Below are positions 23,936-54,349 of a stretch of DNA of 64,000 bases, piece by piece. The position numbers and the translations under genes were made by a program. Below the pieces are notes generated by a model, which saw nothing but the letters and a program-made list of their open reading frames with translations, did not search any database and was not told the DNA's origin. Origin of the DNA: a virus. Every line of letters starts with the position of its first letter. Positions within the stretch are counted from its first letter, which is position 1. The stretch spans positions 1-64,000 of IMG/VR virus record IMGVR_UViG_3300012357_000001. One strand, 5' to 3'.

Positions 23936-23954
23936 GTGTGTCTTCCCTGATCTC

Positions 23955-24251: not shown

Positions 24252-24832
24252 GACGTCGCCTCCGACGTGTTGTGGAACGTGGCGTACAGGTACGCCGCGA
24301 TCCCGTCGTCGTAGGCCTCGCGCTCCGAATCCAGCTTGTACGTGGGGCGCTGGTATGCGTTGGCGGCGTCCCTGATATCGCCGGGGCCGTAGCCGTGCTT
24401 GGTGTGCAGCTTGCGCGCGTAGACGAAGCCGTCATCCCACGCGCCCTTCGGCGCCACGGTGAACTCCGCCTTGAACTGCTCGGCTGGCATGCCCTCGTAG
24501 CCGGTGCCGGTCTGCGTGCGGATCACGACGCGGCCCGCGTACTGGGACGCGGCCCACACGTAGTCCTGCGGATCGGCGTTGCGGCGGTAGCGCATTCCGA
24601 CTTCGAGGTGCCTGGTATCCGTCATGATCTTCCTGTCTTCCCTGATCGTTACTTCTTGGCCCGGCGGGCGGGATCGGGCCGGGGTGAACTCGGCTTCGAA
24701 CTGCTCGACAGGCATGCCCATCCAGCCGGTCTTCGTGTGGACCAAGACGCTTCCGTCGCCCTTCGATGTGAGCCATACGTATTCGTGCGGCTCCGCGTTG
24801 CGACGGTACCTGCCTAGTTCTAGATCCGTCAT
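24248..24832 (-). CDS. protein with internal tandem duplication (possible second start at 24625)
   Basis: ATG 24832 is M14 of the track ORF. Two copies of about 55 aa (MTDLELGRYRRNAEPHEYVW... and MTDTRHLEVGMRYRRNADPQDYVW...), each preceded by the TCAGGGA motif. Confidence 0.6.
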   Translation of the reverse strand: MTDLELGRYRRNAEPHEYVWLTSKGDGSVLVHTKTGWMGMPVEQFEAEFTPARSRPPGQEVTIREDRKIMTDTRHLEVGMRYRRNADPQDYVWAASQYAGRVVIRTQTGTGYEGMPAEQFKAEFTVAPKGAWDDGFVYARKLHTKHGYGPGDIRDAANAYQRPTYKLDSEREAYDDGIAAYLYATFHNTSEATS

Positions 24833-24861
24833 GATCTTCCCTGTCCCTGATCTTGGTGTAT

Positions 24862-24878
24862 CTGATGACAACTACAAC
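24862..24878 (-). promoter_or_regulatory. class-1 promoter-like box, variant (GTTGTAGTTGTCATCAG)
   Basis: -10-like TGTAGT followed by the conserved TGTCATCAG, 30 nt upstream of ATG 24832 and right after the stop of 24872..25201. Confidence 0.5.
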
Positions 24879-25201
24879 TTAGCAGACTCCCCGGCCTTGG
24901 CGGAAGGGTACTTCCACCCGGATCCGTAGGGGCCGGGGATGCCCCGGCGAAGCCAGCTGTCCACCTGCTCGATGTCGAACCACCGGTAGCCGCGCGGCGA
25001 GCCGTCGACCTTGTGGGTGATATCCACAGGCTGTGGAAAAGCCTCTCCGGCCGCGTTCTTGGTGCCGCGGTGCCACCAGTCCCGGATCCGTCGGCGGTCC
25101 AGCGGCGGGTCGATGGCGTAGCGCTCAGACAGGATGGCCGCCAGGCCCTGGAATCCGGCCCTGCCGTCCTTCTCCTCCCACAGCCTGCCGACGGGCGACA
25201 T
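24872..25201 (-). CDS. possible excisionase/MerR-like winged-helix DNA-binding protein
   Basis: Track ORF with RBS aggagaggag upstream. The C-terminal pattern YRWFDIEQVDSWL is reminiscent of Xis/AlpA-type HTH proteins. Weak call. Confidence 0.4.
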   Translation of the reverse strand: MSPVGRLWEEKDGRAGFQGLAAILSERYAIDPPLDRRRIRDWWHRGTKNAAGEAFPQPVDITHKVDGSPRGYRWFDIEQVDSWLRRGIPGPYGSGWKYPSAKAGESAKL

Positions 25202-25228
25202 CGCACCGTCTCCTCTCCTACACGGGGG

Positions 25229-25258
25229 CAGGGCCGCCGCCTGGCGGCGGCGACCCTG
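25229..25258 (-). terminator. terminator-like hairpin after the DUF932-like gene
   Basis: 8-bp stem GCCGCCGC/GCGGCGGC extended by CAGGG/CCCTG, 16 nt after stop 25274-25276. No clear U tract. Confidence 0.5.
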
Positions 25259-25273
25259 CGGTCAACTACTAGG

Positions 25274-26530
25274 TTATCGCCGGACGGAGACGAGCTCCAG
25301 GGCGGGAACCGCGAGGCGCTCGACCTCGTAGGCCCGGTCCGGGTCCTCCAGCGTCTGCGCGAAGGCGGTGATCGCGTTGGCGACACCGCCAGCGGTCGGC
25401 TGGCCGGACAGGATGAAGAAGTCGAGGACCGACTTCGACTCGTCGGCGGTGAAGCCGAGTCCGGTGCAGACCTTCGGCACGACCTCGGTCGGGCTGGCGA
25501 TCGTGACGGCGGCCTTCTCCTCGAAGCCCGTGATCATGCTGGCCAGGTAGTCGACGGTCAGCCACTGCGAGACCGCGTCGGAGGTCTCCGACTTGATCAG
25601 CTGACCGGCCGCGCGGACCGTGCCCAGCGAGGGGCGGATGACGCCCTCGGACAGGACGCGGCCGAGGTGGACCTTGCGGATGCCCTTGCGGACGTCGGTC
25701 CAGCCGTTGGTGCAGCGGACCAGGCAGACCACGGGGGTCAGGTTGTAGGCGCCGGAGCCGGTCTCGGAGTTGTCGAAGTCCAGGCCCATGTAGGCCAGGG
25801 GCTCGTCGCCGTGGTTGAAGATGTGGTGGTCGCCGTACTGGCGGCGCAGCGCGGTCAGGTCGCGGTGTCCGGCGCGGCGCGGGCCGTTGTCGGTGCCGCC
25901 GCTGCCGTCGAACGGGCTGCGGTAGCCGTCCAGCAGGCCCTCGGCGCGGGCGTAGACCTCGGGGAACTCGAACCGGACGCGCATCCGGGTCTCGCTCAGG
26001 TCCGAGACGTTGACGATCGGCTGCACACCGGCGGCCTGGATGCCCTGCGTGACGGCCATCAGCATGTCGAGGTTGTCCATCGACAGGTTGAACCGGTCGG
26101 ACAGGAACGCGCGGGCCACACCGGGCTCGCCAGCGTCGCCGCGGAACAGCCGCAGCAGGAAGCTGCGGTCGTCGGCCGCGTGCAGCAGGGTGCCGTCGGC
26201 GCCCTTGTTGCCGTGCAGCCATCCGTTGACGTTGCCGTCGATCAGGTCGTTGCGGCCCGCCTCGCGCAGCTTGCGGAAGTAGGTCGTGCCGATGCCCAGC
26301 TTGTCGGCCAGACCGCGGTCGGCGATGTCCGTGAGCGAGTAGGTGCCCGCCGCGGAGGTGACGCCCTCCTCGGTGACCTCGGCGACGGTGCTGGCGACCA
26401 CGAGCTGGCCGTTGCGGCTCCAGACCGAGCGGGCCGGGGCCACGACGTCGAGCTTGTGCGCCTTCTGCGAGTTGAGGATCTCGAGCAGTTCGGCGGCGGA
26501 GGCGTTGCGGGCGGTGAGCTGTACGGTCAT
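25274..26530 (-). CDS. DUF932-like phage/plasmid protein
   Basis: ATG 26530 is M27 of the track ORF. The pattern LDFDNSETGSGAY...VVCLVRCTNGW matches my recollection of the DUF932 core. Confidence 0.65.
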   Translation of the reverse strand: MTVQLTARNASAAELLEILNSQKAHKLDVVAPARSVWSRNGQLVVASTVAEVTEEGVTSAAGTYSLTDIADRGLADKLGIGTTYFRKLREAGRNDLIDGNVNGWLHGNKGADGTLLHAADDRSFLLRLFRGDAGEPGVARAFLSDRFNLSMDNLDMLMAVTQGIQAAGVQPIVNVSDLSETRMRVRFEFPEVYARAEGLLDGYRSPFDGSGGTDNGPRRAGHRDLTALRRQYGDHHIFNHGDEPLAYMGLDFDNSETGSGAYNLTPVVCLVRCTNGWTDVRKGIRKVHLGRVLSEGVIRPSLGTVRAAGQLIKSETSDAVSQWLTVDYLASMITGFEEKAAVTIASPTEVVPKVCTGLGFTADESKSVLDFFILSGQPTAGGVANAITAFAQTLEDPDRAYEVERLAVPALELVSVRR

Positions 26531-26569
26531 CTTCCCTGATCTCCTTGATCCGGGGCCGCTGCGGCCCCA

Positions 26570-26590
26570 CTGATGACAACTATACCCGGT
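26570..26590 (-). promoter_or_regulatory. class-1 promoter-like box (ACCGGGTATAGTTGTCATCAG)
   Basis: One of three identical 21-bp copies. -10-like TATAGT. 40 nt upstream of ATG 26530, with a 7-bp-stem hairpin (26552-26568) in the leader. Confidence 0.6.
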
Positions 26591-26669
26591 CTTCGGCCGT
26601 TCACACAAGCTGGCACGCAGAAAGGGCCCTCTGCGGCGGCAGATGACCCTTCCCGCACCCCGTTAGTAC

Positions 26670-26735
26670 CCCGGCCGCGCGGTTGTAGCTCTCTCCAGTG
26701 GGGGAGTGGAGATAGCCGGTTCACGCGCGGCCGGG
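26670..26735 (-). terminator. large compound hairpin after the SSB-like gene
   Basis: 12-bp outer stem (26670-26681 pairs with 26724-26735) enclosing an inner 6-bp hairpin, 12 nt after stop 26747-26749. Confidence 0.5.
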
Positions 26736-26746
26736 TGCTTCGCAGC

Positions 26747-27790
26747 CTACTGGGCCCAGGGCGGCGGCGGCGCGCCCTGCGGTCCGGCCTGCTCGGGCTG
26801 CGCCGGAGCGCCCTGGCCGTTCCACGGCGCGTTGCCGGGGGCGGGCGCAGGCGCGGGCGCCGCGGGCTGCTGCGGCTGGGGCTGGCCCTGCTGCGGCTGC
26901 TGCGGTGCCTGCTGCTGCGGCTGGTAGGGCGCCGGGGCCGCGCCGTAGCCCGGGGCGGGCTGCTGCGGCTGCTGCATCGGGTTCCACGGCTGCGCGGCGG
27001 GCGCCTGCGGTGCCTGCTGCGGAGTCGCCCACGGCGGGACAGCCGCGTTGCCGCCGGGCTGGGCACCGTTGGGGGCTGCTGCAGGCGCTGGCGTCTGCCA
27101 CGGGTCAACGGGCGCGGGCGCTGCGGCGGGCTGCTGCGGGCCTCCGTAGCCCGGCTGGGGCTGCTGCCACGGATCCTGCTGCGGCGGCGCGTAGCTCGGC
27201 TGGCTGTAGTCCTGCTGCGGCTGCGGGGCGTAGCCCTGCTGCGGCTGCGCGTACTGAGGCTGCGCGTACTGCGGCTGCTGAAACGGCGACTGCCCGTAGC
27301 CGGGCTGCTGCCCATAGCCGGGCATCGCGGCGGGCTGCTGCGGCTGGTAGGTCGGCCAGGTCGTCGGGGCGCCGGGGCGCGGCGGGCGCACGTCGCGCAC
27401 CTTGTTGCGCTGCACGCCCTCGTACTCGTCGAGCACGATCTTCAGCAGCACCGGCTTGCCGACCATCGCCTGTGCGATCTGCTCTTCCGGAGGGTTGCTC
27501 TTGACCCAGTCGGCCGGGATCCCCATGGCCTCCAGGTGCCGGAACATGATCCCGAGCGACTGGGCCGCCGACGGGCCGTCCGTGGTGATCGTCATCGGGA
27601 ACCGGATCTGCGCGCGTCCGGCGTTGGGACCGGTCGTCACGCGGAACCGGACGTCCCACTGTCCCTTGGCGCCGTCCTTGGTCCGGCCCCACGTGCTCGA
27701 CTCGACCACGGCGTCGACCTCATTGGTGTCGTAGACGAAGATCGAGCTGTCGGCCTGGCCGTACAGCGAGTTGAAGTCGTACTGACCCAT
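26747..27790 (-). CDS. ssDNA-binding-like protein with a Pro/Gln-rich tail of about 210 aa
   Basis: Track ORF. Globular N-terminal domain of about 135 aa directly downstream of the Sak4-type ATPase (typical module order), followed by PQ/Y/G low complexity. Confidence 0.55.
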   Translation of the reverse strand: MGQYDFNSLYGQADSSIFVYDTNEVDAVVESSTWGRTKDGAKGQWDVRFRVTTGPNAGRAQIRFPMTITTDGPSAAQSLGIMFRHLEAMGIPADWVKSNPPEEQIAQAMVGKPVLLKIVLDEYEGVQRNKVRDVRPPRPGAPTTWPTYQPQQPAAMPGYGQQPGYGQSPFQQPQYAQPQYAQPQQGYAPQPQQDYSQPSYAPPQQDPWQQPQPGYGGPQQPAAAPAPVDPWQTPAPAAAPNGAQPGGNAAVPPWATPQQAPQAPAAQPWNPMQQPQQPAPGYGAAPAPYQPQQQAPQQPQQGQPQPQQPAAPAPAPAPGNAPWNGQGAPAQPEQAGPQGAPPPPWAQ

Positions 27791-27793
27791 GAT

Positions 27794-28570
27794 CTAGTTC
27801 CTTCTTCCCTGGAGAACCTGCGTGAGCATGGTTTCCGCTGTGAATCCGGGGTGAGAGGGATCCCCGATCTTCATGGTGTAGGGCAGGCGTCCTCCCAGGC
27901 GCTCGCCGGTCTCGTACTGCGGATGCGGGCCGATGAACATCAGCCGGTTGCCGTCCCGCTCGGCCCCGAGATATCCGAGCACGTCCACGTAGTACGGCAG
28001 GTAGTCCTGGGCCTGGCCCTGGACCATCGGGCGCCAGCGGCCCTCCTTCAGGTGCGTACCGGCCACGAAGGTCATCGTCCACATCGGCTTGACCGGGTGT
28101 GTGATCAGGTCGCGGTACTGGCGGACCATCGAGGACACCTGACGGAGCAGCGCGTTCCAGTGGTCCCTCTCGATCTTGCCGTTACCGGCCAGGTCGTCGA
28201 TCACCCGCTGCTGGACCTCGGTGACCGAGTCCATCGAGCAGGAGTTGAACGGGTGCTGGCCGGAGTTCAGGACCCGGTAGGTGGCGGACACCGTCCGTGC
28301 CTCGCGCACGAGCACGATCGCGGTGTCCCAGCTGCCGTCCGGCCGCGGCGGGGGCTCGCGCAGCGGATCCCAGTAGACCTTGCGGGACGGGGTCCAGTAC
28401 GAGGAGCCCTCGACGTCGAGCACGAGGCGCGGCGTCGGGCCGGAGTCGGCGAAGGTGGACTTGCCAGCCTTCGGCAGCCCGTGCACCAGGAACGAGAGTC
28501 CCTGGGCCCTCCGCGGCTGCGGCGTTGCAGGCGCGGGGGCGTGCACCTGAGCGTACTGCTGGGCTGTCAT
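27794..28570 (-). CDS. RecA-like AAA ATPase (Sak4-type recombination protein)
   Basis: Walker A motif HGLPKAGKST, Walker B-like LVLDVEG. Size and the neighbouring SSB and exonuclease genes are typical. Confidence 0.7.
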   Translation of the reverse strand: MTAQQYAQVHAPAPATPQPRRAQGLSFLVHGLPKAGKSTFADSGPTPRLVLDVEGSSYWTPSRKVYWDPLREPPPRPDGSWDTAIVLVREARTVSATYRVLNSGQHPFNSCSMDSVTEVQQRVIDDLAGNGKIERDHWNALLRQVSSMVRQYRDLITHPVKPMWTMTFVAGTHLKEGRWRPMVQGQAQDYLPYYVDVLGYLGAERDGNRLMFIGPHPQYETGERLGGRLPYTMKIGDPSHPGFTAETMLTQVLQGRRN

Positions 28571-28809
28571 CCGACGACCGCGTCCCAGATCGCGAGGCAG
28601 CCGATCCCCATGCCGAACACGAGCGCCAGGGTGAACACCGCGTGGGAGAACGTCGTGATGCTTTCGTTGATCCTCTTGTGCTTGGACTCGCGGATCGCGT
28701 CGCGCTCCGCGATCCTGTTGGCCGTTTCCATGTGACGGGCCGCCTGCTCGCCGAGGATGCCCTCAACGAGGGTGCGCGGGACGCGGGGGGTGTTCGATGA
28801 TTGCTCCAT
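28567..28809 (-). CDS. small C-terminally membrane-anchored protein
   Basis: Track ORF. TM segment AVFTLALVFGMGIGCLAIW. ATGA and TGATG coupling to neighbours. Confidence 0.45.
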   Translation of the reverse strand: MEQSSNTPRVPRTLVEGILGEQAARHMETANRIAERDAIRESKHKRINESITTFSHAVFTLALVFGMGIGCLAIWDAVVG

Positions 28810-29786
28810 CAGACCTTTGCCATCTCTTCCCTGATCGTACGGAGTGCGTCGTCCCTGTAGTACTCGTAGGGGTCCGCCTGCCGGAATCTTCCACTGCGGA
28901 CAAGACTAGCAGACCAGTCGCTGCCGTCGTCCATCATCGGGCAGATTTCTCGGAAAGTGCACCACCACTTGCAGTCGTTCGGGATCTGCGTCGGATACAT
29001 CTGCGAGCGCTGTACCTGGTCGATCACGGCCAGGTCGCCGCCGCTGCGCTGGTATGCGTCGTCGAGCAGCGCGCGTGCCGCCATGATCTGCGACGCCACC
29101 GTCTGCACCTTCAGCAGCGTCGCGTGGACCTCCTCCGGGGTGTAGAGGAACGGGTCCCGCCGGTAGTACGGCGGATTGGCGCGAGCGGTCCGCTTCACCC
29201 TGCGCAGCGTGTCGATCGTGCCCCCCGCGATCTTCGGTCCGTCGGGCGGCGACGCGAGGTGCTGCACCAGCGTGTAGAACCTCATCTGCGGATTCATCCG
29301 CAGCTGCTCGGCGACCTCGAAGTTGGACCCGGTCTTGTAGTCGCGGAACAGCAGCGCGCCGTCGGAGATCCGCTCGGACACCTGGTCCATCCTGGCCCGC
29401 AGCTGCACACCGGGAACGCCCGGCAGGTCGACCCGCACGTCCGTCTCGGTGGCGACGGTCCGGAAGTCGGCGTCCACGCCCTCGGTGGCCAGCCACTCCA
29501 GGTAGCCGGACACCATCGCGTCGGCCATGTCCGCCTCGGTGGCCAGGTCGGACGCAAACTCGGGAGTGCGGTTCGCCTCGATCTTGTATAGCAGCGCGAG
29601 CACCGCGAGCGGGTCGAGCTGGTAGCCGTAGTAGGCCTCCAGCGCGGTGTGTACCCGAGTGCCGAGCTGGCGGGCGCCGGTCGGCGCTTCGTCGGCTGGC
29701 ACGAATCCCAGGTAGTACGTCAGGTACCAGTTCCTGCGGCACCTGGTCCACGCGTAGATCTCGGACTGCGAGATCATCGTCGTCAT
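28809..29786 (-). CDS. PD-(D/E)XK exonuclease, Cas4/RecB-like with Fe-S cysteines
   Basis: DYKTG motif, one N-terminal Cys (WTRCRRNW) and a C-terminal CKWWCTFREIC cluster. Confidence 0.8.
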   Translation of the reverse strand: MTTMISQSEIYAWTRCRRNWYLTYYLGFVPADEAPTGARQLGTRVHTALEAYYGYQLDPLAVLALLYKIEANRTPEFASDLATEADMADAMVSGYLEWLATEGVDADFRTVATETDVRVDLPGVPGVQLRARMDQVSERISDGALLFRDYKTGSNFEVAEQLRMNPQMRFYTLVQHLASPPDGPKIAGGTIDTLRRVKRTARANPPYYRRDPFLYTPEEVHATLLKVQTVASQIMAARALLDDAYQRSGGDLAVIDQVQRSQMYPTQIPNDCKWWCTFREICPMMDDGSDWSASLVRSGRFRQADPYEYYRDDALRTIREEMAKV

Positions 29787-29995
29787 CTCTGCTCTCCCTT
29801 CAACACTTCGCCGTCGATTACCCGGACACGGGGACGTACGGCCACGGACATCTCGCCGCGGGCGATCTCGGCCGACAGCTCGGAGACGAACGGGATCTCG
29901 ATCACGAGTTCGCCGTCGCGGTAGGCGACCTCGACGCCGCTGTAGGGCCGCGGGAAGGTGATCTCCAGCACCGCCCCGGCCTCTGCGCTACTCAC
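29783..29995 (-). CDS. hypothetical protein
   Basis: 70-aa track ORF coupled to both neighbours by overlaps. Confidence 0.45.
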   Translation of the reverse strand: MSSAEAGAVLEITFPRPYSGVEVAYRDGELVIEIPFVSELSAEIARGEMSVAVRPRVRVIDGEVLKGEQR

Positions 29996-31865
29996 CGTCT
30001 CCGCCGATCAGCCAGCGCAGTATGTCGGCGTCGCGGATGACCTCTGCGGCCCGCTCGCCCTTCTCCTCGCCGAGCTGGAAAAGCCGCTCCTCGACCGTTT
30101 TCGGGGTGATGGAGTAGACGACGCGGATGCCGCCCTGCGCCATGCCCTCCTGCCCGATGCGGTCGATGCGGGCGATCTTCTGCTCGCGTGAGCGCCAGCT
30201 CGGATCCGGCTGCATGAAGTAGATCGTGTGCGCCGCAGTGAGCGTGATGGACTCCGCACCGGCCGCGGTGATGAAGATCACCCGGCAGTCGCCTCGTTGG
30301 AACCAGGTGACCGCCTGATCCATGGCGTCCGCGCTCATCCCTCCGACGATCTTGCAGTGCGTGATCTTCTTCACGGCGAGGGCCTTCTCCGCGAGCGCGA
30401 CCAGCTGCGGCGAGTTGGCGGCCACGACCAGCTGGCCATCCTCGTCCTCCAGGAAGTCGAGCAGGTCGGCCACCTTGGATGACGGCGCGACCATCCTGGG
30501 ATTCGCCGTGGTGAACCCGTCGGAGTCCTCCCCCTCGACGACCTCCAGCATGGACGACGCCAGCTGGCACAGGCGGGAGAACGACACCAAGTCGTTCTGC
30601 GCGACGACCAGCCGACCCTCGAGCTCGACCATGGCCTGCTTGGCGATCTTGTCGTAGGTGCGCTTCTGCGCCGGGGCCATGGCCGGGTAGCGGAACACGG
30701 GCTCGAGCCGCTGCGGCAGGAACGGCAGCGCGATGGCCCGCGGGATGCGCCGAATCAACGGCTGCACGAAGCTGTGGAAGGTGTCCGCGCTGTCCGGCCG
30801 GATGCCGAGCACGGTGGACCCGCCGTGGAAGTTGATCTCCTTGACCGCGAACAGGTCCAGGTACCGGCTGCGGGACGGCGCCGTCGCGATGTCGAGACCG
30901 TGCAGCAGCGGCCACAGCTGGCCGATGTTGTCGGCGATCGGGGTCCCCGTGGCCAGCCAGCGGTACTCCGCCTGGTGCAGCAGCCACCACAGCGCGCGGG
31001 TCTGCTTCGAGCGCGCGTCCTGCATCCGGTGCGCCTCATCGGCGATCACCGTGCGCCAGGGTCGTTCGGTCAGGTTCAGATCCTTCGGGTGCACCTCGCA
31101 GCGGGCCGCCGCGATGCCGTCGTCGATGCCGCCGCACACCTTGCACCGGATGAACCGGACGCCGGGGTACGCCTCGAGCCGGGTGTGCGCGCGCACGTTC
31201 GGCCAGCCCACGATCCACACGTCCGCGTCGGTGCGCTCGATCGCCTGGCGTCGGCGCAGCGCCGTGCCGTCCACCACGACCGTGCGCAGCTCCGGAGCCC
31301 AGTTCGCGATCTCGCGCTCCCAGTTGCGGATCGCCGCGACCGTGCACACGACCAGCGCGGGGAAGGGGCCGGAGCCCATGGGCCCGAGCGCGGCGGCGAG
31401 CTGCAGCGCCCGGATCAGCTGCGCGGTCTTGCCCTGGCCCTGCTCGTCGCCGAGGATGCCGCGTCGGCGGTCGGCCAGGTAGGCGGCCCCGCCGCGCTGG
31501 AACGGATAGAGGCGGCGCGGGCGGCCGTCCGGGAACGGGACGCTGGCCTCGTCGAGACCGTCGAGGATCACAGCGACGTCGCCGTCCTCCTGGCACGCGC
31601 GGTCGTCGAGCGCGCCGCGCAGCGACCAGGCGTGCAGCACGTCCTCGTACGCCTCCTTCGACCACGCCTGTAGCTCGGGTCCGCGGTCCAGCTGCTGGCC
31701 GGACCACAGCATGTGCATCGTGACGACCGTCGCCCAGGACAGCGGGGCGTGCCAGGTCCCGGCCTTCTTGTCGAAGTTGCATCCGGGGATCTGGGTGGCC
31801 AGGTGGTTCTCCACCGTGCTGCACCCGATTGTGATCTTGCCGTCGATGATCTCGGTCCACGCCAT
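29988..31865 (-). CDS. SNF2-family helicase
   Basis: ATG 31865 is M23 of the track ORF. Motifs LGDEQGQGKT, VIADEAHRMQ and the C-terminal helicase motif RIDRIGQ. Contains a Cys/His insert, CKVCGG...CEVH. Confidence 0.85.
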   Translation of the reverse strand: MAWTEIIDGKITIGCSTVENHLATQIPGCNFDKKAGTWHAPLSWATVVTMHMLWSGQQLDRGPELQAWSKEAYEDVLHAWSLRGALDDRACQEDGDVAVILDGLDEASVPFPDGRPRRLYPFQRGGAAYLADRRRGILGDEQGQGKTAQLIRALQLAAALGPMGSGPFPALVVCTVAAIRNWEREIANWAPELRTVVVDGTALRRRQAIERTDADVWIVGWPNVRAHTRLEAYPGVRFIRCKVCGGIDDGIAAARCEVHPKDLNLTERPWRTVIADEAHRMQDARSKQTRALWWLLHQAEYRWLATGTPIADNIGQLWPLLHGLDIATAPSRSRYLDLFAVKEINFHGGSTVLGIRPDSADTFHSFVQPLIRRIPRAIALPFLPQRLEPVFRYPAMAPAQKRTYDKIAKQAMVELEGRLVVAQNDLVSFSRLCQLASSMLEVVEGEDSDGFTTANPRMVAPSSKVADLLDFLEDEDGQLVVAANSPQLVALAEKALAVKKITHCKIVGGMSADAMDQAVTWFQRGDCRVIFITAAGAESITLTAAHTIYFMQPDPSWRSREQKIARIDRIGQEGMAQGGIRVVYSITPKTVEERLFQLGEEKGERAAEVIRDADILRWLIGGDGE

Positions 31866-31899
31866 CGTCGTGCCTCTCTTCCCTGATCTTCCGGCTGGC

Positions 31900-32364
31900 C
31901 TACAAGATGTCAGCAGTGTGGAGCGTAGCACGCCAGCTGGTCGGCAGGTTCCCGCTCCGCAGGCACCACGCGACGAGGTGCTGGGCTGCGCTCTGCGCGT
32001 CGTCCTTGCCGGACGGCCACAGGCCCAGGGAGCGCAGCATGGCCGGGCTGGCGGGCTTGCGGTCGTCGGGTGCGGCCGGAGTCAGGATGCGCACGTGGCT
32101 GGCGATGGCCAGGTACCGGGCCACGCCGATCATCTCGATCGTCTGGTGCACCGGCTCCTGCGTGAGCTTGTGCGTCTGCGGGCCGATGTGGAATCTCTCC
32201 CACCCGATCATGCCGCCGTGGTTCGAGTGCTCGCAGAACGATGCGATGAGATCCCCGGCCTGCTGCGGCGGGAACTCGTTGGCCCAGAAGAATCTGCCAT
32301 CCATCAGCGTCGCCAGGCCGGTCATCCCGCCGGGATCGATCCACATCACGGCAGGCGGCAGCAC
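31900..32364 (-). CDS. RuvC-like Holliday junction resolvase
   Basis: N-terminal WIDPGGMTG (the RuvC GIDPG-type motif) and C-terminal DDAQSAAQH. 154 aa. Confidence 0.65.
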   Translation of the reverse strand: MLPPAVMWIDPGGMTGLATLMDGRFFWANEFPPQQAGDLIASFCEHSNHGGMIGWERFHIGPQTHKLTQEPVHQTIEMIGVARYLAIASHVRILTPAAPDDRKPASPAMLRSLGLWPSGKDDAQSAAQHLVAWCLRSGNLPTSWRATLHTADIL

Positions 32365-32365
32365 G

Positions 32366-32683
32366 TCAGTTCCTCGCGTCGATGAGCAGCGGGGTCAGAG
32401 AGCCGCCGTCGAAGTCGGCGGACGGCGGGATCTTGGTCCACACTCGCCCCTTCTGGTCTAGCCAGCCGACCCGGCGCAGCGTCGCGAAGTGCTGGCACGC
32501 GGCGTCCCATGCCTGCTCCATCAGCTCCAGATCCTTGACCGCGGTCGGGTGGACACCTGTCCTCTTCTGCCGTTCTACTTCCCAATGGGTGAATGTGTAC
32601 TCGATGCTCCGTGGATCGACGACGACCTTCCACGGCTCGCCCTCGTACGCCTTCATGTCGGTCTGGGCTCCGGGGTACCTCAT
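32366..32683 (-). CDS. hypothetical protein
   Basis: ATG 32683 (M5 of the track ORF) overlaps the upstream stop (ATGA). Confidence 0.5.
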   Translation of the reverse strand: MRYPGAQTDMKAYEGEPWKVVVDPRSIEYTFTHWEVERQKRTGVHPTAVKDLELMEQAWDAACQHFATLRRVGWLDQKGRVWTKIPPSADFDGGSLTPLLIDARN

Positions 32684-32889
32684 GCCTTGTCCCACCTCTC
32701 CAGCGCGTCCATCGCGGTCAGCTCCGGCACGACCTGGTCACCGTACTGGCCCGTCGTCGCGTGCGCGATGACCCGGATGGCGCACTGGTACACGAGCCTG
32801 CGGGGCAGCTTCCAGACGAACCAGCGAAACAGCCTCTCGGCCTTCCGCTTGATCCAGTACTTGAAGTCGTAGTACTTGAACTTGATCAT
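32680..32889 (-). CDS. hypothetical basic protein
   Basis: ATG 32889 (M18 of the track ORF), ATGA overlap. Sequence begins MIKFKYYDFKYW. Confidence 0.45.
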   Translation of the reverse strand: MIKFKYYDFKYWIKRKAERLFRWFVWKLPRRLVYQCAIRVIAHATTGQYGDQVVPELTAMDALERWDKA

Positions 32890-33188
32890 GACAGCACCCC
32901 TCCGATCTTGAAGTCCCTGATGACGTGGACCAGGCGCCACTCCCCCGACTTCAGATCCATGGTGATCTTCACCGGGATGCTGAGCTTCCCGAACACGCCT
33001 GCCGGTGTGCGCGGGTTGGTGGGGTCGCGCAGGATCATGAGTCGGGTGTTCGGGTGCATCTCGATGACCAGGCCCTGCGGCACCCGCTGCGGGTCGCCCA
33101 CCCAGTAGGGGTACTGCTCGTCCAGGTAGTCGGTGATGTCCGCCTCCAGGGACTGGCGCGGGCCGAGCTTGGCGTCCTCTTTCGTCAT
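32886..33188 (-). CDS. hypothetical protein
   Basis: Last 100 codons of track ORF 32886..34907. ATGA overlap with the polymerase stop. Confidence 0.5.
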   Translation of the reverse strand: MTKEDAKLGPRQSLEADITDYLDEQYPYWVGDPQRVPQGLVIEMHPNTRLMILRDPTNPRTPAGVFGKLSIPVKITMDLKSGEWRLVHVIRDFKIGGVLS

Positions 33189-34969
33189 GACTTGATCCAC
33201 CTTTCTTCCAGGATCTTCCCGTCCCAGGTGATCGGCACCTGGTACGTCTCGCGGTCGGTCAGGATCCTGGTCATCGTGGCCAGGGCGTCCTTGGCGATCT
33301 CCTTCGGGAACTCGCCCATCACCTCGTCGTGGATCGTGAGGCGCAGGTACGGGGTGAGCCCGGCCGCGTCCAGCTCGATCACGCCCGTCTTCAGGATCTC
33401 GGCCGAATGGCCCTGGACCTTGTAGTTCAGGCCCGCGTACTCCCTGCCCCGGTCGGTGTAGAGCACCCGGCCCGTCGGCGTGGTCACGAAGCCGCGCCGT
33501 CCGGCGCGCACCTCCGCCTTGCACCGCTGGATGATCTGCTGCATCAGCCGGTCCGGGCCCGGATAGAGCTGGCCGAACGCGTTGTACACCGGCGACGCCT
33601 GCTCGACCGGCACACCGGCCGTCAGCGCCATGCGGTCCAGGCCCGACCCGTAGATCCTCGCGTAGGTGGAGTTCTTGGTCAGCTGGCGGCGCACGTCGGA
33701 CTTCGGGATCTGCTCCGGGTCGGTCTGGTAGATCCGACCGGCCATCAGCCGGAAGAAGTCGATGCCGCTCTCGTCGGCCTGGCGGAACATCTCGATCATG
33801 CCCCGGTCGTTCGAGAAGTGCGCGGTGATGCGCGCCTCGATCTGGTCCGCGTCTACCGTCACGAACGCGTTGCCCGGCCGCGGCCGGTAGGACCCGCGGA
33901 TCATCGGCACGTCCCGGTCGAAGGTCTGCATCGGCGGGTCGGTGACGGACTGCCGGGAGGTGCGCGCCTGGCAGGTGTTGATCGAGGCGTGGATGACGTC
34001 GTCCTCGTCGCGCAGCTCGAGGAACTTGCGCAGGTGCGTGTTGACGATCTTGCCGGTCTTGCGTGCGTAGGCGATGGTCTCGATCAGCTTGCGGTGCTCC
34101 GGATACGTGTTCGAATACAGCTTCAGCGTGTCCTTGTCGGTCGACGCCTGGCCGCCCTTCGTCCACACGGACGTCGGGATGCCGACGGAGTTCAGCGCCC
34201 GTTCGATCTGCGCGGCCGAGTTGACCGAGCTGATGCCGAACTCCTTGTGGAGCCAGGTGGTCGCCTCGCGCTCCCACGCCTCCAGCCGCTCGATCTGCCG
34301 CTCGATGTACGGCACGTCGAGCATCATCCCGGCGTCCATCATGCTCGCGGCGATCCGGGCGGTGGACCTCTCCAAGTCGTACGCCTGGCGGAACTTGGAC
34401 ATGGTCTCCGGCCCGTGCTTGTGCCACAGGTGCGCCGTGAGCACCGGGTCCAGCGCGGCGTACGCGGTGTAGCCCGGATAGTCGAGCGGCACGGTGGCCC
34501 ACGTCCAGTGGTTGGCCGACATCGCCTCCTGCAGGACACGCTCGCCGATCATCGCCCGCGGGTCGATGTCCTGCGCGGCACGCGGCTTCAGGCCGTGCGC
34601 GCCGATCGAGTCGTGCAGGTGGGTCACGAACAGCGTGTCGTGGATCTTCGCCCAGTTCAGCTTCAGACCCAGCTGGCGGTGGATCACCCGCCAGTCGTAG
34701 CCCATGTTGTGCGCGCCGAGTTCGCCGCGGTAGTCCCGCAGGATCTCCAGGATGCCGCCGCCCCACAGCTTCGCCGGGGCGGCCCATCCGGTGTGCATGT
34801 CGCCGATCTGGATCAGGCGGCACTCGTCCCGGTACGGGCTGAGGCCCGACGACTCCGTGTCGAAGCACAGCGGACCCTCGCGCCTCTCCCCGGCCCACCG
34901 CTTGCACTCGGCCAGCTCGTCGATCGAGGTGATCGTGCGCAGGCTGACGCCGTCGAGTACGCCGGTCAC
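33185..34969 (-). CDS. DNA polymerase I (family A) with 3'-5' exonuclease domain
   Basis: Exo motifs FDTES, HNMGYDW and YAALDP. Pol motifs DADQIEARI, RRQLTKNSTYARIYG and IHDEV. GTG 34969 overlaps the upstream stop. Confidence 0.9.
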   Translation of the reverse strand: MTGVLDGVSLRTITSIDELAECKRWAGERREGPLCFDTESSGLSPYRDECRLIQIGDMHTGWAAPAKLWGGGILEILRDYRGELGAHNMGYDWRVIHRQLGLKLNWAKIHDTLFVTHLHDSIGAHGLKPRAAQDIDPRAMIGERVLQEAMSANHWTWATVPLDYPGYTAYAALDPVLTAHLWHKHGPETMSKFRQAYDLERSTARIAASMMDAGMMLDVPYIERQIERLEAWEREATTWLHKEFGISSVNSAAQIERALNSVGIPTSVWTKGGQASTDKDTLKLYSNTYPEHRKLIETIAYARKTGKIVNTHLRKFLELRDEDDVIHASINTCQARTSRQSVTDPPMQTFDRDVPMIRGSYRPRPGNAFVTVDADQIEARITAHFSNDRGMIEMFRQADESGIDFFRLMAGRIYQTDPEQIPKSDVRRQLTKNSTYARIYGSGLDRMALTAGVPVEQASPVYNAFGQLYPGPDRLMQQIIQRCKAEVRAGRRGFVTTPTGRVLYTDRGREYAGLNYKVQGHSAEILKTGVIELDAAGLTPYLRLTIHDEVMGEFPKEIAKDALATMTRILTDRETYQVPITWDGKILEERWIKS

Positions 34970-35475
34970 CGGATGACCGCGGACTGCGGGATCAGCGCGA
35001 GGATCTCCGGGTGCTTGAGGCCCGCGGCGGCGAGCAGCTCGACGACCGGCTGGGACCAGTACGGGGTGCCGGTGCGGCGGTCCATCGTCAGGTCGTCCAC
35101 GACCTGCTTCGCGGTGTCGAGCATGTGCACGTTGTCGCGCGGGATCTCGATGCGCACCGCGGCGTCGGGGTCGAGCGCGGTCGGCTCCGGCGGGCGGCAC
35201 TTCGCGCACGGCTCCGCGTCGCCGAGCAGGTCGGCCGCGGTGCTGCGCACGCCGGGGCGCGCCTGCTTCGGGGTGCGGCACGACGTGTCGATGCGGTGGT
35301 AGAGGACCGACCTCGAGCAGCGGTGCACCACCCACCCGCCGTCCTCGCGGTGGTACAGCGACATCTCGATCCACCGGGCCCGCTCGCCGTCGTCGCTGGT
35401 CACCTCGGCGGCAAGCTCTCCCTCGAAGTCGGCTAGCGTCCTGCCGTGGTGATCCTGGATGGTGACATGTGCCAT
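34966..35475 (-). CDS. hypothetical protein, first gene of the leftward block
   Basis: ATG 35475 is M19 of the track ORF, preceded by TTCAGGGAGGAA. Confidence 0.55.
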   Translation of the reverse strand: MAHVTIQDHHGRTLADFEGELAAEVTSDDGERARWIEMSLYHREDGGWVVHRCSRSVLYHRIDTSCRTPKQARPGVRSTAADLLGDAEPCAKCRPPEPTALDPDAAVRIEIPRDNVHMLDTAKQVVDDLTMDRRTGTPYWSQPVVELLAAAGLKHPEILALIPQSAVIR

Positions 35476-35481
35476 CTCCGT

Positions 35482-35514
35482 GTTCCTCCCTGAACTTGTC
35501 CTCAGATCAGGATA
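35482..35514 (-). promoter_or_regulatory. class-2 promoter-plus-leader element (TATCCTGATCTGAGGACAAGTTCAGGGAGGAAC)
   Basis: 28 of 33 nt identical to 41634-41666. Lies upstream of ATG 35475, in the 75-bp divergent intergenic region. Confidence 0.5.
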
Positions 35515-35550: not shown

Positions 35551-36471
35551 ATGGACTGTCACCACCAGGATTTCGACGCAGGGGATCCCATCACCGAGCA
35601 GTACGGGCTGGGCTCCGCCGCGCTGCGCTACCAGGGCCAGGGGTACGCGGTGCTCGCGCTGGCCCGCGGCCGGAAGAAGCCGCACCGGATGCTCGGCGAG
35701 TACGGCGGAGTGCACTGGGCCTCGATCGACGGCCGCGCCGCCAAGTGGTCGTGGTCGCAGGACCGCGCGGCCAACATCGGGGTCGCCTGCGGCTCGCCGT
35801 CCCGGCTGGTCGTGGTCGACCTGGACGTGAAGAACGGGCAGGACGGCCCCGGGCAGCTGACCCGCTTCATGACGGAGCACGGCTTCGGCATCCGGGACGC
35901 CCCCATCGCGGAGACGCCGTCCGGCGGCGTGCACCTGTGGCTGCGCACCCCGCGCGGCATGCGCGTGCAGGGCCGTCCCGGGATCCTGCCGGGCATCGAC
36001 ATCCTCGGGGACGGCAACCTCGTGGTCGCCCCGCCCTCGATGGCGGTGGTCTCCTCGCGCACCGGGGAGTCGGTCCCGATCCCATACCGGTGGTCGCGCG
36101 GCTGCTTCTGCTCGGCGCCGGACGCTCCGCCGTGGCTGCTGGAGTGGGTCGCGTCGGCAGGTCCCGCGACCTCCTCGGGTGGCAGCACGTACAGCGGCGA
36201 CGACGTCGACATCGGCGAGCTGAAGGAGCGCGGCGCGCCGGTCGGCAGCCGGAACCGGGAGCTGTACCGCGCCGCCTGCTCGCTGCACCGCAGGCTGCCG
36301 CCGGACCGTGTGCTCGACGAGCTGCGCGCGATCTGGATGGCCGGGGACGTGTCCGGCATGCCGTGGCGCGAGGTTCTGGTGCTGAGCGAGAGCGCCCGGA
36401 AGTTCATCGACGGACAGCGGGCGCGCGAGTACGCGCTGCGCGACGCGTGGCTCAAGAGGGGGACGCGGTGA
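35551..36471 (+). CDS. primase-polymerase (Prim-Pol) domain protein
   Basis: Motifs VVVDLDVKNG and SGGVHLWL are typical of bifunctional Prim-Pol N-terminal domains. First gene of the rightward block. Confidence 0.75.
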   Translation: MDCHHQDFDAGDPITEQYGLGSAALRYQGQGYAVLALARGRKKPHRMLGEYGGVHWASIDGRAAKWSWSQDRAANIGVACGSPSRLVVVDLDVKNGQDGPGQLTRFMTEHGFGIRDAPIAETPSGGVHLWLRTPRGMRVQGRPGILPGIDILGDGNLVVAPPSMAVVSSRTGESVPIPYRWSRGCFCSAPDAPPWLLEWVASAGPATSSGGSTYSGDDVDIGELKERGAPVGSRNRELYRAACSLHRRLPPDRVLDELRAIWMAGDVSGMPWREVLVLSESARKFIDGQRAREYALRDAWLKRGTR

Positions 36472-36650: not shown

Positions 36651-38053
36651 CAGCCACGGCGACAGCCCCGGCGGCCGTGGACACGCTGATGGGGATCCTG
36701 CAGAAGGACTACTACGTGGCGGCCACCACGGACGGGAGACCGTTCGCGGTGCGGCTGGACGCCCCCTCGGTCATGGTCCCGATGCGCGGAGCCTTCGGCA
36801 TGCGGCAGCGGTTGGCCGTGGACATGTACGCGCAGACCGGCCGGGTGGCGAACAACGACGCGCTCTCCTCCGCGCTGAACCTGGCCGAGGGCGCGGCCAT
36901 GGGCAAGGGCAGGGTCACCCCGCACCTGCGGATCGCCGCATGGCAGGGGTCGATATTCCTGGACCTGGGCCGTGCGGACGGCAAGGCCGTGGAGCTCCGG
37001 CCCGGCGCGTGGCGCGTGGTGGACCGGCCGCCCGTGCTGTTCACCAGGACCGCGCTGACGGCCGAGCTGCCGCTGCCCGCCGAGGACGGCCGGATGGAGG
37101 CTGCCCGCGACCTGATCAACATCCGGTCGGTGGACGACTGGGCCCTGTACGTCGCGTGCCGGGTGGCGTCCCTGTTCCCCGGCATCACGCACCCGATCGA
37201 GGTGATGAGCGGACCTCCGGGAAGTGCGAAGACGGCGGCCACCCGGATCACCACGAACTGGATCGACGCCTCGCCCGCCATGCAGCCGGTCCCGCGGGAC
37301 GGGCGGACCTGGGCCGCGCTGGCGGGCGGCCGGTACGTGCTGGCGCTGGACAACGTGTCCTCGGTGGCGCGCTGGTGGTCGGACGCGCTGTGCAAGGCGG
37401 CTAGCGGCGACGGATGGGTGGACAGAGCCCTCTATACGGACGGCGACCTGTACGTGGCGGCTTTTCAAAGCGTGATCGTGATGAACGGGATCACCCTGGG
37501 CGGTCTCGAGGGAGACCTGGCGGACCGGCTGGCGGCGCACAAGCTGGCGAGGATCACGGCGTACCGGTCGGACGACGAGGTCGCAGCCGTATGGGCGCTG
37601 GCGCACCCCGAGGCGCTGGCCTGGCTGCTGGACCAGACCGTCGCGATCCTCGCCGACATGGCGTCCATGCCGCAGCCGGTGGGGCAGGACCGCCTGATCC
37701 GGTTCTCGCAGATCGTGCAGCTGATCGACCGCCGCTGGCGGACCAATGCGATCGGTGCCTGGCGTTCGGGGCGGTATGCGGCCCTGGAGGACATCGCAGA
37801 CGGGGACGCGGTCGCGGTCGCGCTGCGCGAGGGGGTGCGCGCCGAATGGCGGGGCACGGCCACGGAGCTGGTGCACCACCTGGTGATGCACGGAGGGCTA
37901 CAGGACGAGTTCGGGCGCAAGTGGTCGCCCCGGATGCTGTCCGAGCGGTTGGAGCGGTCGAGCCAGGCCCTGGCGGCCATCGGCTGGCGGGTCGAGCGGT
38001 TCCGCGAGGGGCACGACCGGAAGCGGATGATCCGGATCCTGCCGCCGCAGTGA
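36647..38053 (+). CDS. P-loop NTPase, primase-associated helicase-like protein
   Basis: Walker A motif GPPGSAKT, Walker B-like YVLALDNV. Lies directly after the Prim-Pol gene. First in-frame start after stop 36584-36586. Confidence 0.65.
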   Translation: MTATATAPAAVDTLMGILQKDYYVAATTDGRPFAVRLDAPSVMVPMRGAFGMRQRLAVDMYAQTGRVANNDALSSALNLAEGAAMGKGRVTPHLRIAAWQGSIFLDLGRADGKAVELRPGAWRVVDRPPVLFTRTALTAELPLPAEDGRMEAARDLINIRSVDDWALYVACRVASLFPGITHPIEVMSGPPGSAKTAATRITTNWIDASPAMQPVPRDGRTWAALAGGRYVLALDNVSSVARWWSDALCKAASGDGWVDRALYTDGDLYVAAFQSVIVMNGITLGGLEGDLADRLAAHKLARITAYRSDDEVAAVWALAHPEALAWLLDQTVAILADMASMPQPVGQDRLIRFSQIVQLIDRRWRTNAIGAWRSGRYAALEDIADGDAVAVALREGVRAEWRGTATELVHHLVMHGGLQDEFGRKWSPRMLSERLERSSQALAAIGWRVERFREGHDRKRMIRILPPQ

Positions 38054-38068
38054 GGGACCGGATGAGAG

Positions 38069-38094
38069 GCCCGGACTACGGTCCGGGCTTTTCC
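38069..38094 (+). terminator. intrinsic terminator (GCCCGGAC-TACG-GTCCGGGC + TTTTCC)
   Basis: 8-bp GC stem, tetraloop and T tract, 16 nt after the helicase-like gene stop. Confidence 0.75.
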
Positions 38095-38096
38095 AC

Positions 38097-38402
38097 GTGC
38101 GGACGCATGCGGACGGAGGTCGCACGGTTGTCCCTTTACTCTTCCTCTCTATTTACCCCCTACCAGAGAAGGTATAGGGCGGACTGTCCTCCTGCGTCCG
38201 CGCGTCCGCAGAGAGGAAGTGGGAGGCTGTAAATGTGCGTCCGTATGGTCCGCATCGTCCGCATGAATCAGTTGCGGAGTGCGAGATGTGCGTCCGCATA
38301 GACGGATCATGCGAGGTGTGCGTCCGCGTCGGTGGGTGTGCGACCGCATGCGGACGCAGGATTCGTGGGTGTCAGATGGATAGTGCGAGATGTGCGTCCT
38401 CA
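38097..38402. repeat. array of at least 11 GCGTCCGC / GTCCGCAT-type short repeats in both orientations (iteron- or operator-like)
   Basis: Copies at 38099, 38108, 38193, 38202, 38234, 38247, 38256, 38287, 38317, 38337-38358 (palindrome) and 38391. An 18-bp direct repeat lies at 38278-38295 and 38382-38399. Confidence 0.8.
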
Positions 38403-38454
38403 CAGGTCAGGTACCAAGATCAACTTACCCTATGGCTTTGGGATCATCGGGCCG

Positions 38455-38469
38455 TATCATGACCGCATG
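38455..38469 (+). promoter_or_regulatory. -10-like TATCAT placed for a leaderless transcript of the TerS-like gene
   Basis: TATCAT at 38455-38460. The A of ATG 38467 lies 7 nt downstream, and no SD-like sequence intervenes. Confidence 0.3.
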
Positions 38470-39099
38470 GACGAGCAGGAGCGGCGCTCAATGGACGCGG
38501 TCATGGCGAATCTGCTGGGCCCGATCCCGACACATCAGTGCAAAGGGCACAATAAGGCCGGAGGGCCGTGCGGACAGGCTCCGGCAGCCGGATCAGAGGT
38601 CTGTCACCTCCACGGGGGCAAGGCGCCTCAGGTGATCTCCAAGGCGCAGGACCGGATGGCGCACCGGCAGGCGGTGATCGACGCGAAGAAGAGCGTGCTC
38701 GACCTGACGGACGAGGAGCTGATCGCGCAGTACGGCAACCCGGCCGAGACGCTGCAGTGGATCATGGCGATCTCGCGAGCGCTGGCGAGCCGGATGCAGG
38801 CCGTGCTGGCCGACAAGGAGGAGCTGACCTATTACGACGCGTTCGGCAACATCCACGTGCGCGGCGAGGTCGGCGCGATGCTCAAGGCGGCCGACCTGGC
38901 TGGGACGCACGCCGAGCGCGCGCTGCGCCTCGGATTGGACAAGCGGGGCCTGGACCTGCAGGAGAAGCAGCTGCTGCTGCTGGATAGGGCGCTGGATACG
39001 GCTCTGACGCAGGCCGGGCTGAACACGGAGATGCAGAAGACCGTGCGCCGGGTGCTCCGGAGTGAGATTCTTGCTGCGGACAACGCCATGACGGAGTAG
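38467..39099 (+). CDS. terminase small subunit-like protein (zinc-ribbon N-terminus)
   Basis: M46 of the track ORF. The motif CKGHNKAGGPCGQAPAAGSEVCHLHGG followed by a helical body matches my recollection of actinophage TerS proteins. Unverified. Confidence 0.4.
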   Translation: MDEQERRSMDAVMANLLGPIPTHQCKGHNKAGGPCGQAPAAGSEVCHLHGGKAPQVISKAQDRMAHRQAVIDAKKSVLDLTDEELIAQYGNPAETLQWIMAISRALASRMQAVLADKEELTYYDAFGNIHVRGEVGAMLKAADLAGTHAERALRLGLDKRGLDLQEKQLLLLDRALDTALTQAGLNTEMQKTVRRVLRSEILAADNAMTE

Positions 39100-49043: not shown

Positions 49044-49352
49044 GTGACATCGAGCGACACAGCACAGGCAGCGGCGCTCTCGCGGGCGCTGCGGAAGGCC
49101 GGATGGAACCCGGTCAGCTCGGACAGTCCGCGCCGGTACGACGCCGGTCTGACCGTGCGGCGCGGCCCGCTGGGCCTCGGCGCCACGGTGTGCCTGAGCT
49201 CGCCGAAGACCCGGGAGCTGGACGGATGGTCCAAGGAGATGGCCGCGGACCTGACGAAGATGGGCTACGTGTTCGAGCGCAGCGAGATGGAGTGCGACAG
49301 CTCCGGATACACCGTGTGGTTCCGCCGGGTGAGGAAGATGATGGTCCTGTGA
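49044..49352 (+). CDS. hypothetical protein
   Basis: Track ORF with GTG start. Confidence 0.5.
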   Translation: MTSSDTAQAAALSRALRKAGWNPVSSDSPRRYDAGLTVRRGPLGLGATVCLSSPKTRELDGWSKEMAADLTKMGYVFERSEMECDSSGYTVWFRRVRKMMVL

Positions 49353-49702
49353 CCGGCCGACGGAGGGTCCGGATCCGGATCACCTGCGTCAACTGCCTGC
49401 GTGCGGATCAAGCGCACCGAGGCCACGGCTGGTGCCAGGCCTGCTACATGCGCTGGTCTCGCGCCGGACGGCCCGACACCGGACCGCCCGCGCCCTACGA
49501 GGTGCAGCTGGTCGACGACGTCGCCATTGAGCTCGCCGTGAAGGGCGCGCGCCCGTGGCTCACCCCGCGCGAACGCCGCATCGCCGTCGCCGAGCTGCGT
49601 CTGCGCGGCCTGTCCCTGAACGCCATCGCCGACCGGCTCGGCTGCACCCAGCGCACCGTCGTGCGCCACGTATCCGCGATCAAGAAGGGGGCGTACGCAT
49701 GA
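49349..49702 (+). CDS. DNA-binding protein: zinc finger plus sigma70-region-4/LuxR-like HTH
   Basis: GTGA coupling. CVNCL...HGWCQACY, then LTPRERRIAVAELRLRGLSLNAIADRLGCTQRTVVRHV. Confidence 0.6.
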   Translation: MTGRRRVRIRITCVNCLRADQAHRGHGWCQACYMRWSRAGRPDTGPPAPYEVQLVDDVAIELAVKGARPWLTPRERRIAVAELRLRGLSLNAIADRLGCTQRTVVRHVSAIKKGAYA

Positions 49703-54171: not shown

Positions 54172-54178
54172 TCCGCCG

Positions 54179-54349
54179 GTGGTAGCCACGATCAACGCGT
54201 TCTTCGCCTGGCCCGGCGGAGGCGTGTGGTCCAATCTGCTCGCCTCCGTCGTGTGGACCGTTCCGGCTCTGATCTGGCATCACAAGACGGTCATGAAGAA
54301 GCTGGACAGGCACCACGAGGAGACGATGCGAGAGGTGAGGTCGAAATGA
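54179..54349 (+). CDS. holin-like small membrane protein (56 aa)
   Basis: Translated by hand; below the track cut-off. GTG start, two hydrophobic segments, basic C-terminus. ATGA overlap with the endolysin start. Confidence 0.4.
   Translation: MVATINAFFAWPGGGVWSNLLASVVWTVPALIWHHKTVMKKLDRHHEETMREVRSK

Follow-up and report, generated by a model that had tools for sequence, protein, structure and literature searches.

The 64,000-nucleotide stretch analysed here (positions 1 to 64,000 of IMG/VR record IMGVR_UViG_3300012357_000001; the window, whose numbering is used throughout) belongs to a tailed-phage genome of 68% GC and is part of a 71,748-bp metagenome contig (GCA_009787515.1, WNGR01000128.1). 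Within it lies a 413-bp gap, preceded by the gene for a 468-aa protein and followed by the gene for a 210-aa protein, and this gap holds a dense array of short repeats, or iterons. The gene for an archaeo-eukaryotic type primase-polymerase (Prim-Pol) stands directly upstream of the 468-aa gene as the first of a rightward primase-helicase pair, an arrangement also found in the relatives described below. A preliminary description, made from the letters of the DNA alone, had reported at least 11 copies of the repeat and left three readings of the gap unranked: iterons of a replication origin, a site recognized by the small terminase, and an operator array for a phage regulator. All of the repeat coordinates it listed proved correct when rechecked against the sequence. 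The coordinates of the features discussed here are collected in Table 1.

Counting GCGTCCGC with at most one mismatch, we found 11 sites in the 316 bp from 38090 to 38405, where an even spread over the window predicts 1.2. The word itself is not rare, as its exact form occurs 16 times across the 64 kb against 16.3 expected. The hexamer GTCCGC, taken on either strand, reaches a maximum of 10 copies per 316 bp at the array and of 4 at the best position elsewhere in the window, and in 200 dinucleotide shuffles the maximum per 316-bp window averaged 4.2, with a largest value of 6. Such clustering is unmatched in the window and goes far beyond what chance would give, and outside 38.09-38.41 kb the motif shows no enrichment. 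The first iteron begins 46 bp past the helicase stop codon, the array holds 11-14 sites in ~300 bp, and adjacent copies are spaced 8-10 bp apart. The layout is ordered: minus-orientation copies are followed by a 53-bp low-GC centre and then by plus-orientation copies that run to 38402. Three sites had escaped the preliminary description, namely a degenerate copy at the inner end of the left set, an inverted GCGGAC at the head of the right proximal set and a near-iteron, GACCGCAT, between the -10 box of a downstream promoter and its start codon.

The right-hand part of the array contains a further level of repetition. A direct repeat that had been described as two copies 104 bp apart extends to 34 nt and has a third copy, giving three composite units in which a CAGATG-like element is followed, after about 15 nt, by GTGCGTCC. 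These units are found at the array and nowhere else in the window, and together with the single inverted copy they recur in most of the close relatives; in a relative of about 50% helicase identity (L024) they are mirrored. We considered dispersed repressor sites of the stoperator kind and repeated phage promoters as alternative identities for the repeats and rejected them, the motif not being enriched elsewhere and the composite unit being confined to the array. Likewise, the composite units were rejected as dispersed or extracytoplasmic function (ECF)-type promoter copies because the unit is unique to the locus, present in both orientations and arranged in tandem at ~9-bp spacing. A search of Rfam gave no match to the region at E <= 1.

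The centre between the opposed iterons is low in GC for this genome: the 50 bp from 38127 to 38176 have a GC fraction of 0.44, the third lowest in the window, and a low-GC centre of 51-81 bp is present in all 13 relatives examined. It holds an imperfect dyad, TACTCTTCCTCTC ... GAGAAGGTATAGGG (CTACT..CTG / CAG..AGTAG). Across the relatives the symmetry of this dyad is kept while the sequences of its arms vary, and hairpin stability is not consistently above that of shuffles. A stable single-strand hairpin at the centre was accordingly rejected as a general feature, with z ranging from +0.87 to -3.05 across 11 loci. To the left of the array, directly after the helicase gene, a GC-rich hairpin followed by TTTT is the likely terminator of the primase-helicase transcript and is also seen in one close relative (L021). 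This hairpin is plausible as the terminator that the preliminary description had placed here, although it fails the T-run criterion of a scan for sigma-70 promoters and terminators over 37.5-39 kb, a scan that gave no match.

The 468-aa protein has no Pfam or PHROG match, and a PDB sequence search returned nothing significant. Its AlphaFold2 model, built with 32 homologues, has a predicted local distance difference test (pLDDT) score of 89.8 and a predicted template-modelling (pTM) score of 0.86. In Foldseek searches of the PDB, the best matches to this model, with E values of 4e-10 to 2e-7, are the superfamily 3 (SF3) helicase portions of primase-helicases, comprising African swine fever virus PrimPol (8iqi), the SaPI5 primase-helicase (7ola; template-modelling score 0.57 on the target), NrS-1 CTR (6k9c), PriRep1 bound to double-stranded DNA (7pds) and poxvirus D5/E5, all at only about 8-12% sequence identity. 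The protein is thus confidently modelled as a predicted SF3 helicase of the self-loading type. The model ends in a winged-helix-like domain (residues ~398-468), in which helices 405-415 and 428-444 are followed by a hairpin at 448-465. This domain evolves faster than the helicase body, with a mean identity of 66% versus 82%.

Relatives of the locus, drawn from IMG/VR, JGI, ENA and Logan assemblies, comprise 11 distinct close loci (74-88% helicase identity) and two loci at about 50% (L024 and L025). The preliminary description had proposed that the repeats be compared among relatives, and all 13 have a dense array in the same place and layout as the window; the repeat word differs among them (GTCCGC, GTCACC, GTCAGC or GTCACA) and is in each case strongly enriched locally. 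An AT-rich centre with at least two iterons per side, opposed in direction, is present in 11 of 14 loci. Inverted sets on the left are seen in L021, which has three copies as in the window, and in L005, L001, L016, L019, L006 and L020. L024 and L025 have the long array on the opposite side of the centre and a gene of another family downstream, and in both of them the array still abuts the helicase gene. L024 also has a ~450-bp noncoding stretch (5780-6230) full of GAGCCAG / GAGCGCCA words upstream of another gene, repeats that are unrelated to the helicase-linked array.

A profile search with the helicase family gave 21 more loci, at 24-38% identity and with different neighbouring genes. In nine of them some 400-bp window holds a single 7-mer at least 7 times, and in eight of these nine the repeat window is the densest within ±2.5 kb and begins -8 to +55 bp from the point, real or projected, at which helicase homology ends. 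Since each distant locus offers ~70-120 candidate windows, the coincidence of array and helicase end is not due to chance. The distant iterons occur in both orientations (AGCGTCCAC, CGTCCGA, GACCGTCAG, GGAACGCT and CGTCCGC), and L042, L044 and L046 show AT-rich spacers. Even at 24% identity the array remains next to the helicase gene, with other genes downstream, which indicates that it belongs with the helicase gene and not with what follows it. This linkage is the strongest argument that the array is the candidate cognate origin of the helicase. In three of the distant loci (L032 1794-2199, L034 3877-4249 and L051 from 1009 onward) the helicase frame seems to stay open through the array; the origin may there lie inside the C-terminal tail of the open reading frame (ORF), or the open frame may be a matter of chance in GC-rich DNA, and the L051 case may be an artefact of frame assignment. 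Among GenBank phages, the protein search gave Microbacterium phage Zeta1847 as its sole match, which is uninformative because its primase and helicase are fused and no gap follows, and the DNA search gave no match. No relative, prophages included, came up in a scan of 185,579 species genomes.

In 7 of 12 close relatives, and not in the window phage, a small divergent gene separates the helicase gene from the array. The 107-117 aa protein that it encodes is a stand-alone paralogue of the winged-helix domain of the helicase (hhalign probability 97.8%, E 8e-13). The position of its gene next to the array ties the putative DNA-binding fold to the array, and the stand-alone protein may be a regulator of origin occupancy.

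The last 40 bp of the gap differ from the rest. They hold a conserved putative promoter, detected only via conservation across the relatives, whose -10 box (TATCAT) ends 6 nt before the ATG of the 210-aa gene. A TAnnnT box stands 6-7 nt before the ATG in all 12 close loci, and the upstream blocks CC(C)TATGGAC and GATC(A/T)T are kept in most of them. The distance of 6 nt between -10 box and ATG would imply a leaderless mRNA, a kind of transcript known from actinobacteria. This arrangement suggests that the putatively leaderless gene heads the long rightward operon. In the 210-aa protein it encodes, a conserved zinc finger of the WRC-like form CX9CX10CX2H lies near the N-terminus, ahead of HGG and a long helical body. 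The protein belongs to PHROG 3678, of unknown function, and none of its 25 homologues carries a functional name; Pfam and a PDB sequence search gave no match, its AlphaFold2 model is of low confidence (pTM 0.26), and a comparison with BFVD found nothing at E <= 0.001, the best hit being a 'WRC protein' at E 0.01. In L024 and L025, the 2.6-3 kb that follow the array yielded no such protein. Within its zinc finger, a 'GPV' versus 'AP/PP' segment weakly tracks GTCAC versus other iterons.

We consider it probable that the array is the replication origin of the upstream helicase, an origin of the SaPI/P4 alpha type in an uncultured high-GC phage. This interpretation builds on the repeat cluster and its statistics, the modelled helicase fold, the conserved layout and the array-helicase linkage, and among the three earlier readings it is the one favoured by the SF3 helicase model, by a layout like that of the origins of Staphylococcus aureus pathogenicity islands (SaPIs) and by the linkage in relatives. 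The phages form a previously undescribed group of high-GC soil phages, and their probable origin is of an already known design. Replication would start at the array. The 468-aa helicase would bind the 8-9 bp iterons (consensus TGCGTCCGC) through its predicted C-terminal winged helix, and the opposed iterons on either side of the centre would position helicase oligomers on each flank. The AT-rich centre would then melt and hexamers would load, after which the neighbouring Prim-Pol would prime and the phage PolA would extend. The long right-hand array, with its CAGATG...GTGCGTCC units and one inverted copy, would supply extra binding sites and may act as an enhancer or as a second loading dyad. 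The last 40 bp of the gap would stand apart from all this, as the promoter of the leaderless operon downstream.

Several observations weigh against this interpretation. The hairpin energy of the central dyad in the window is no better than that of shuffles (z 0.17), and GC skew gives no independent origin signal, being uninformative here because gene orientation also switches nearby. The C-terminal winged helix rests on predicted topology, with no family match. The helix in it that would recognize DNA hardly varies among iteron types, the identity of the whole winged helix does not track iteron type (effect 0.00-0.01), and covariation of the wing alone with iteron type is weak (0.044, reached in 179 of 5000 naive permutations). 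A similarly weak association with iteron type is seen for the zinc finger of the 210-aa protein (354 of 5000 permutations). Finally, by the criterion used, the close relatives L002, L022 and L004 lack left-hand iterons.

If the array were instead a transcriptional operator or control region for a phage regulator, it would turn expression of the small divergent gene and of the long rightward operon on or off, bound by the stand-alone winged-helix paralogue, by the zinc-finger protein or by the helicase in the role of an autorepressor. The gap does contain the conserved promoter of the downstream operon, the divergent winged-helix gene stands beside the array in seven relatives, an iteron-like hexamer sits between the putative -10 box and the ATG of this small gene in L005, L019 and L020, and the zinc finger of the 210-aa protein is weakly associated with iteron type. 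Against these points, the window phage and four relatives keep the full array without the small gene, the downstream promoter is not consistently overlapped by any iteron, and 12-17 sites around an AT-rich centre exceed what is typical of operators. Moreover, distant lineages that differ in both flanking genes keep the array at the helicase gene, the proteins that were scanned yielded no lysogeny genes, and the search of species genomes gave no prophage relatives. The operator proposal of the preliminary description is thus right in part, for the promoter at the 3' end of the gap and for the iteron that overlaps the start of the divergent gene in some relatives, and there is no evidence of the array as a whole being a bank of operators. 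We regard such a role as unlikely, and it could coexist with origin function.

The third of the earlier readings, a packaging site (pac or cos-adjacent) read by the 210-aa protein as small terminase, is very improbable. Some pac sites do consist of two clusters of short repeats that flank the cut region, as in P1 pac, and the putative DNA-binding finger and long helical body of the 210-aa protein have a generic TerS-like shape. Yet the genes for TerL and the portal are 20 kb away, a 257-aa ORF holds the usual TerS position, and L024 and L025 keep the array with no 210-aa gene nearby. The 210-aa protein, which had been labelled 'TerS-like', has no terminase match in Pfam, PHROGs, tblastn of GenBank phages, the PDB or BFVD. 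In eight 68-77 kb contigs of relatives, which are near full length, the locus is internal, at varied positions and never at an end. We give the least credence to a partition (centromere-like) site or an architectural array that would serve an extrachromosomal prophage state: centromere sites are clusters of short repeats in both orientations, as the array is, but the proteins that were scanned include none like ParA or ParB, and the consistent partner gene of the array is the SF3 helicase.

A more elaborate form of the origin, with two layers and its own built-in regulator, is a possibility we think doubtful. The near-invariant winged helix of the helicase would read the conserved GTC core, and the 3-4 variable bases (CGC, ACC, AGC or ACA) would be read by the wing tip or by the WRC-like zinc-finger protein. 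The stand-alone winged-helix paralogue of seven relatives would then be a helicase-derived anti-initiator that competes for the iterons. If this were true, the phages would have near-identical replisomes with swappable cassettes of origin specificity, and replicon incompatibility or exclusion between co-infecting relatives would follow.

Beyond the locus, the genome has the organization of a tailed phage. Tail genes are followed by a leftward replication and recombination block, and a long plus-strand block then carries the Prim-Pol gene, the 468-aa gene, many small unannotated genes, and the genes for the endolysin, TerL and the portal. The window proteins that were scanned yielded no integrase, repressor or ParA/ParB, and no tRNAs were found in the window. 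The holin-like gene (Phage_holin_2) is 32 kb from the endolysin gene, and the two do not form one lysis cassette. A region directly after the endolysin gene (55324-56860), picked out by a filter on third-position GC content (GC3) as a noncoding cos/pac candidate, was rejected, as its sequence suggests that it is coding; it includes a long Pro/Ala-rich linker around 56130-56250. A 117-aa protein encoded further downstream of the array has a C-terminal helix-turn-helix (HTH) like those of LuxR/GerE and of sigma-70 region 4 and is too short for a full sigma factor. The preliminary description had named this protein as a possible binder of the array; nothing links the two.

Table 1. Features of the window and of related loci. 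Coordinates are those of the window unless a related locus is named.
Feature	Coordinates	Strand	Details
Tape measure	6466-9858	+	
Minor tail proteins	11066-15306	+	
Holin-like gene	21998-22426		Phage_holin_2
Replication/recombination block	22958-35506	-	includes AAA_24 protein
PD-(D/E)XK nuclease	28809-29987	-	
SNF2 helicase	29988-32081	-	
PolA	33185-35374	-	
Prim-Pol	35551-36471	+	Pfam PF09250, E 5e-27; PHROG DNA primase families
SF3 (D5-like) helicase, 468 aa	36647-38053	+	Walker A GPPGSAKT; proposed initiator and self-loading helicase
Predicted winged-helix-like domain of helicase	~37838-38050	+	C-terminal
GC-rich hairpin, then TTTT	38064-38093	+	likely terminator
Left iterons	38099-38125	-	all minus orientation: GCGGACGCA 38099-38107, TGCGGACGG 38108-38116, degenerate GGTCGCAC 38118-38125
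AT-rich centre	38126-38178		proposed DNA unwinding element; pyrimidine-then-purine; GC 0.47 over 53 bp
Inner inverted GCGGAC	38179-38184		
Right proximal iterons	38179-38209	+	TGCGTCCGC 38193-38201 (GCGTCCGC from 38194), GCGTCCGC 38202-38209; tandem, 8-9 bp spacing
Right distal iteron array	38234-38402	+	forward copies 38234-38244, 38247-38255, 38256-38264, 38287-38299 (TGTGCGTCCGCAT), 38317-38329 (TGTGCGTCCGCGT), 38337-38349; one inverted 38349-38358; last forward 38391-38402 (TGTGCGTCCTCA)
Period-9 triple	38238-38264		in right distal array
Palindrome	38337-38358		
Composite ~34-bp units	38268-38301, 38298-38331, 38372-38405		CAGATG-like, ~15 nt, GTGCGTCC
Conserved promoter of downstream operon	38428-38466	+	CCCTATGG 38428-38435, GATCAT 38442-38447, -10 TATCAT 38455-38460
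210-aa protein	38467-39099	+	first gene past array; ATG at 38467
117-aa HTH protein	49349-49702		
Endolysin	54172-55323	+	
257-aa ORF	57336-58109		usual TerS position
TerL	58114-59835	+	TerL and portal at 58.1-61.5 kb
Stand-alone winged-helix gene	L005 4925-5276; L018 2191-2544; L019 2287-2619; L020 2280-2630; L022 2254-2595	-	also in L003, L004
Iteron word GCGTCCGC			window, L005, L021
Iteron word GCGTCACC			L001, L003, L016, L019, L025
Iteron word GCGTCAGC			L002, L006, L022; looser form in L004
Iteron word GTCAC(A/G)			L020
Iteron word TGTCACC			L024

Very few origins have been mapped in high-GC phages of the actinobacterial type, and the phage group described here is known from metagenomes only, with most of its genes unannotated. 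The analysis provides a concrete candidate origin and a simple search rule that held in at least 8 of 21 distant lineages, and it assigns to a 468-aa protein without a family match the predicted function of an SF3 self-loading helicase. The iteron variants that occur naturally next to nearly identical helicases are a ready set for studying how origin specificity changes. The view that specialists hold of replication initiation would stay unchanged.

The closest known counterparts are the origins of SaPIs, for which we rely on the account of Rep and its origin (Ubeda 2007 and 2012) as cited in Qiao et al. 2022 (PMC9371898). According to that account, SaPI Rep is an SF3 helicase whose C-terminal winged helix recognizes iterons of 5-6 nt, and the origins, directly downstream of rep, have 6-12 iterons arranged around an AT-rich centre with at least two opposed iterons per side. 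At the level of sequence, each of these origin features is found at the candidate locus in the window. As in SaPIs, an SF3 helicase whose C-terminus forms a winged helix, here predicted, is encoded after a primase gene, and the origin, here a candidate, begins directly 3' of the helicase ORF. An AT-rich centre likewise divides the short iterons, which have opposed orientations on its two sides, and the iteron sequence varies between related elements. Unlike a SaPI, the window represents a full ~72-kb tailed phage of a high-GC host and not a satellite, its iterons are 8-9 bp long with a GTC core rather than 5-6 nt, and its about 14 sites are strongly skewed to one side and accompanied by the extra composite ~34-bp units.

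Phage P4 offers a second parallel, as its alpha protein binds origin repeats via a winged helix (PMC4234260). The P4 primase is of the TOPRIM type and fused to the helicase, whereas the Prim-Pol of the window is a separate ORF, and P4 has a second, distant repeat cluster (crr), whereas no such second iteron cluster was found in the 64-kb window of the ~72-kb genome. The enzyme set of the window is shared with pRN1 ORF904 and with Bordetella phage BIP-1, in both of which the origin lies just 3' of the gene for Prim-Pol, SF3 helicase and winged helix (PMC4234260), the position occupied by the candidate origin here. Those origins are described as a long stem-loop without iterons; the window locus, in contrast, is dominated by iterons and its central dyad does not form a stable hairpin. 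With lambda-type and plasmid iteron origins the locus shares iterons that adjoin an AT-rich unwinding element and a specificity that varies among related replicons. In those systems a separate origin-binding initiator recruits a DnaB-type helicase of the host or phage, whereas in the window phage the helicase itself is the proposed initiator.

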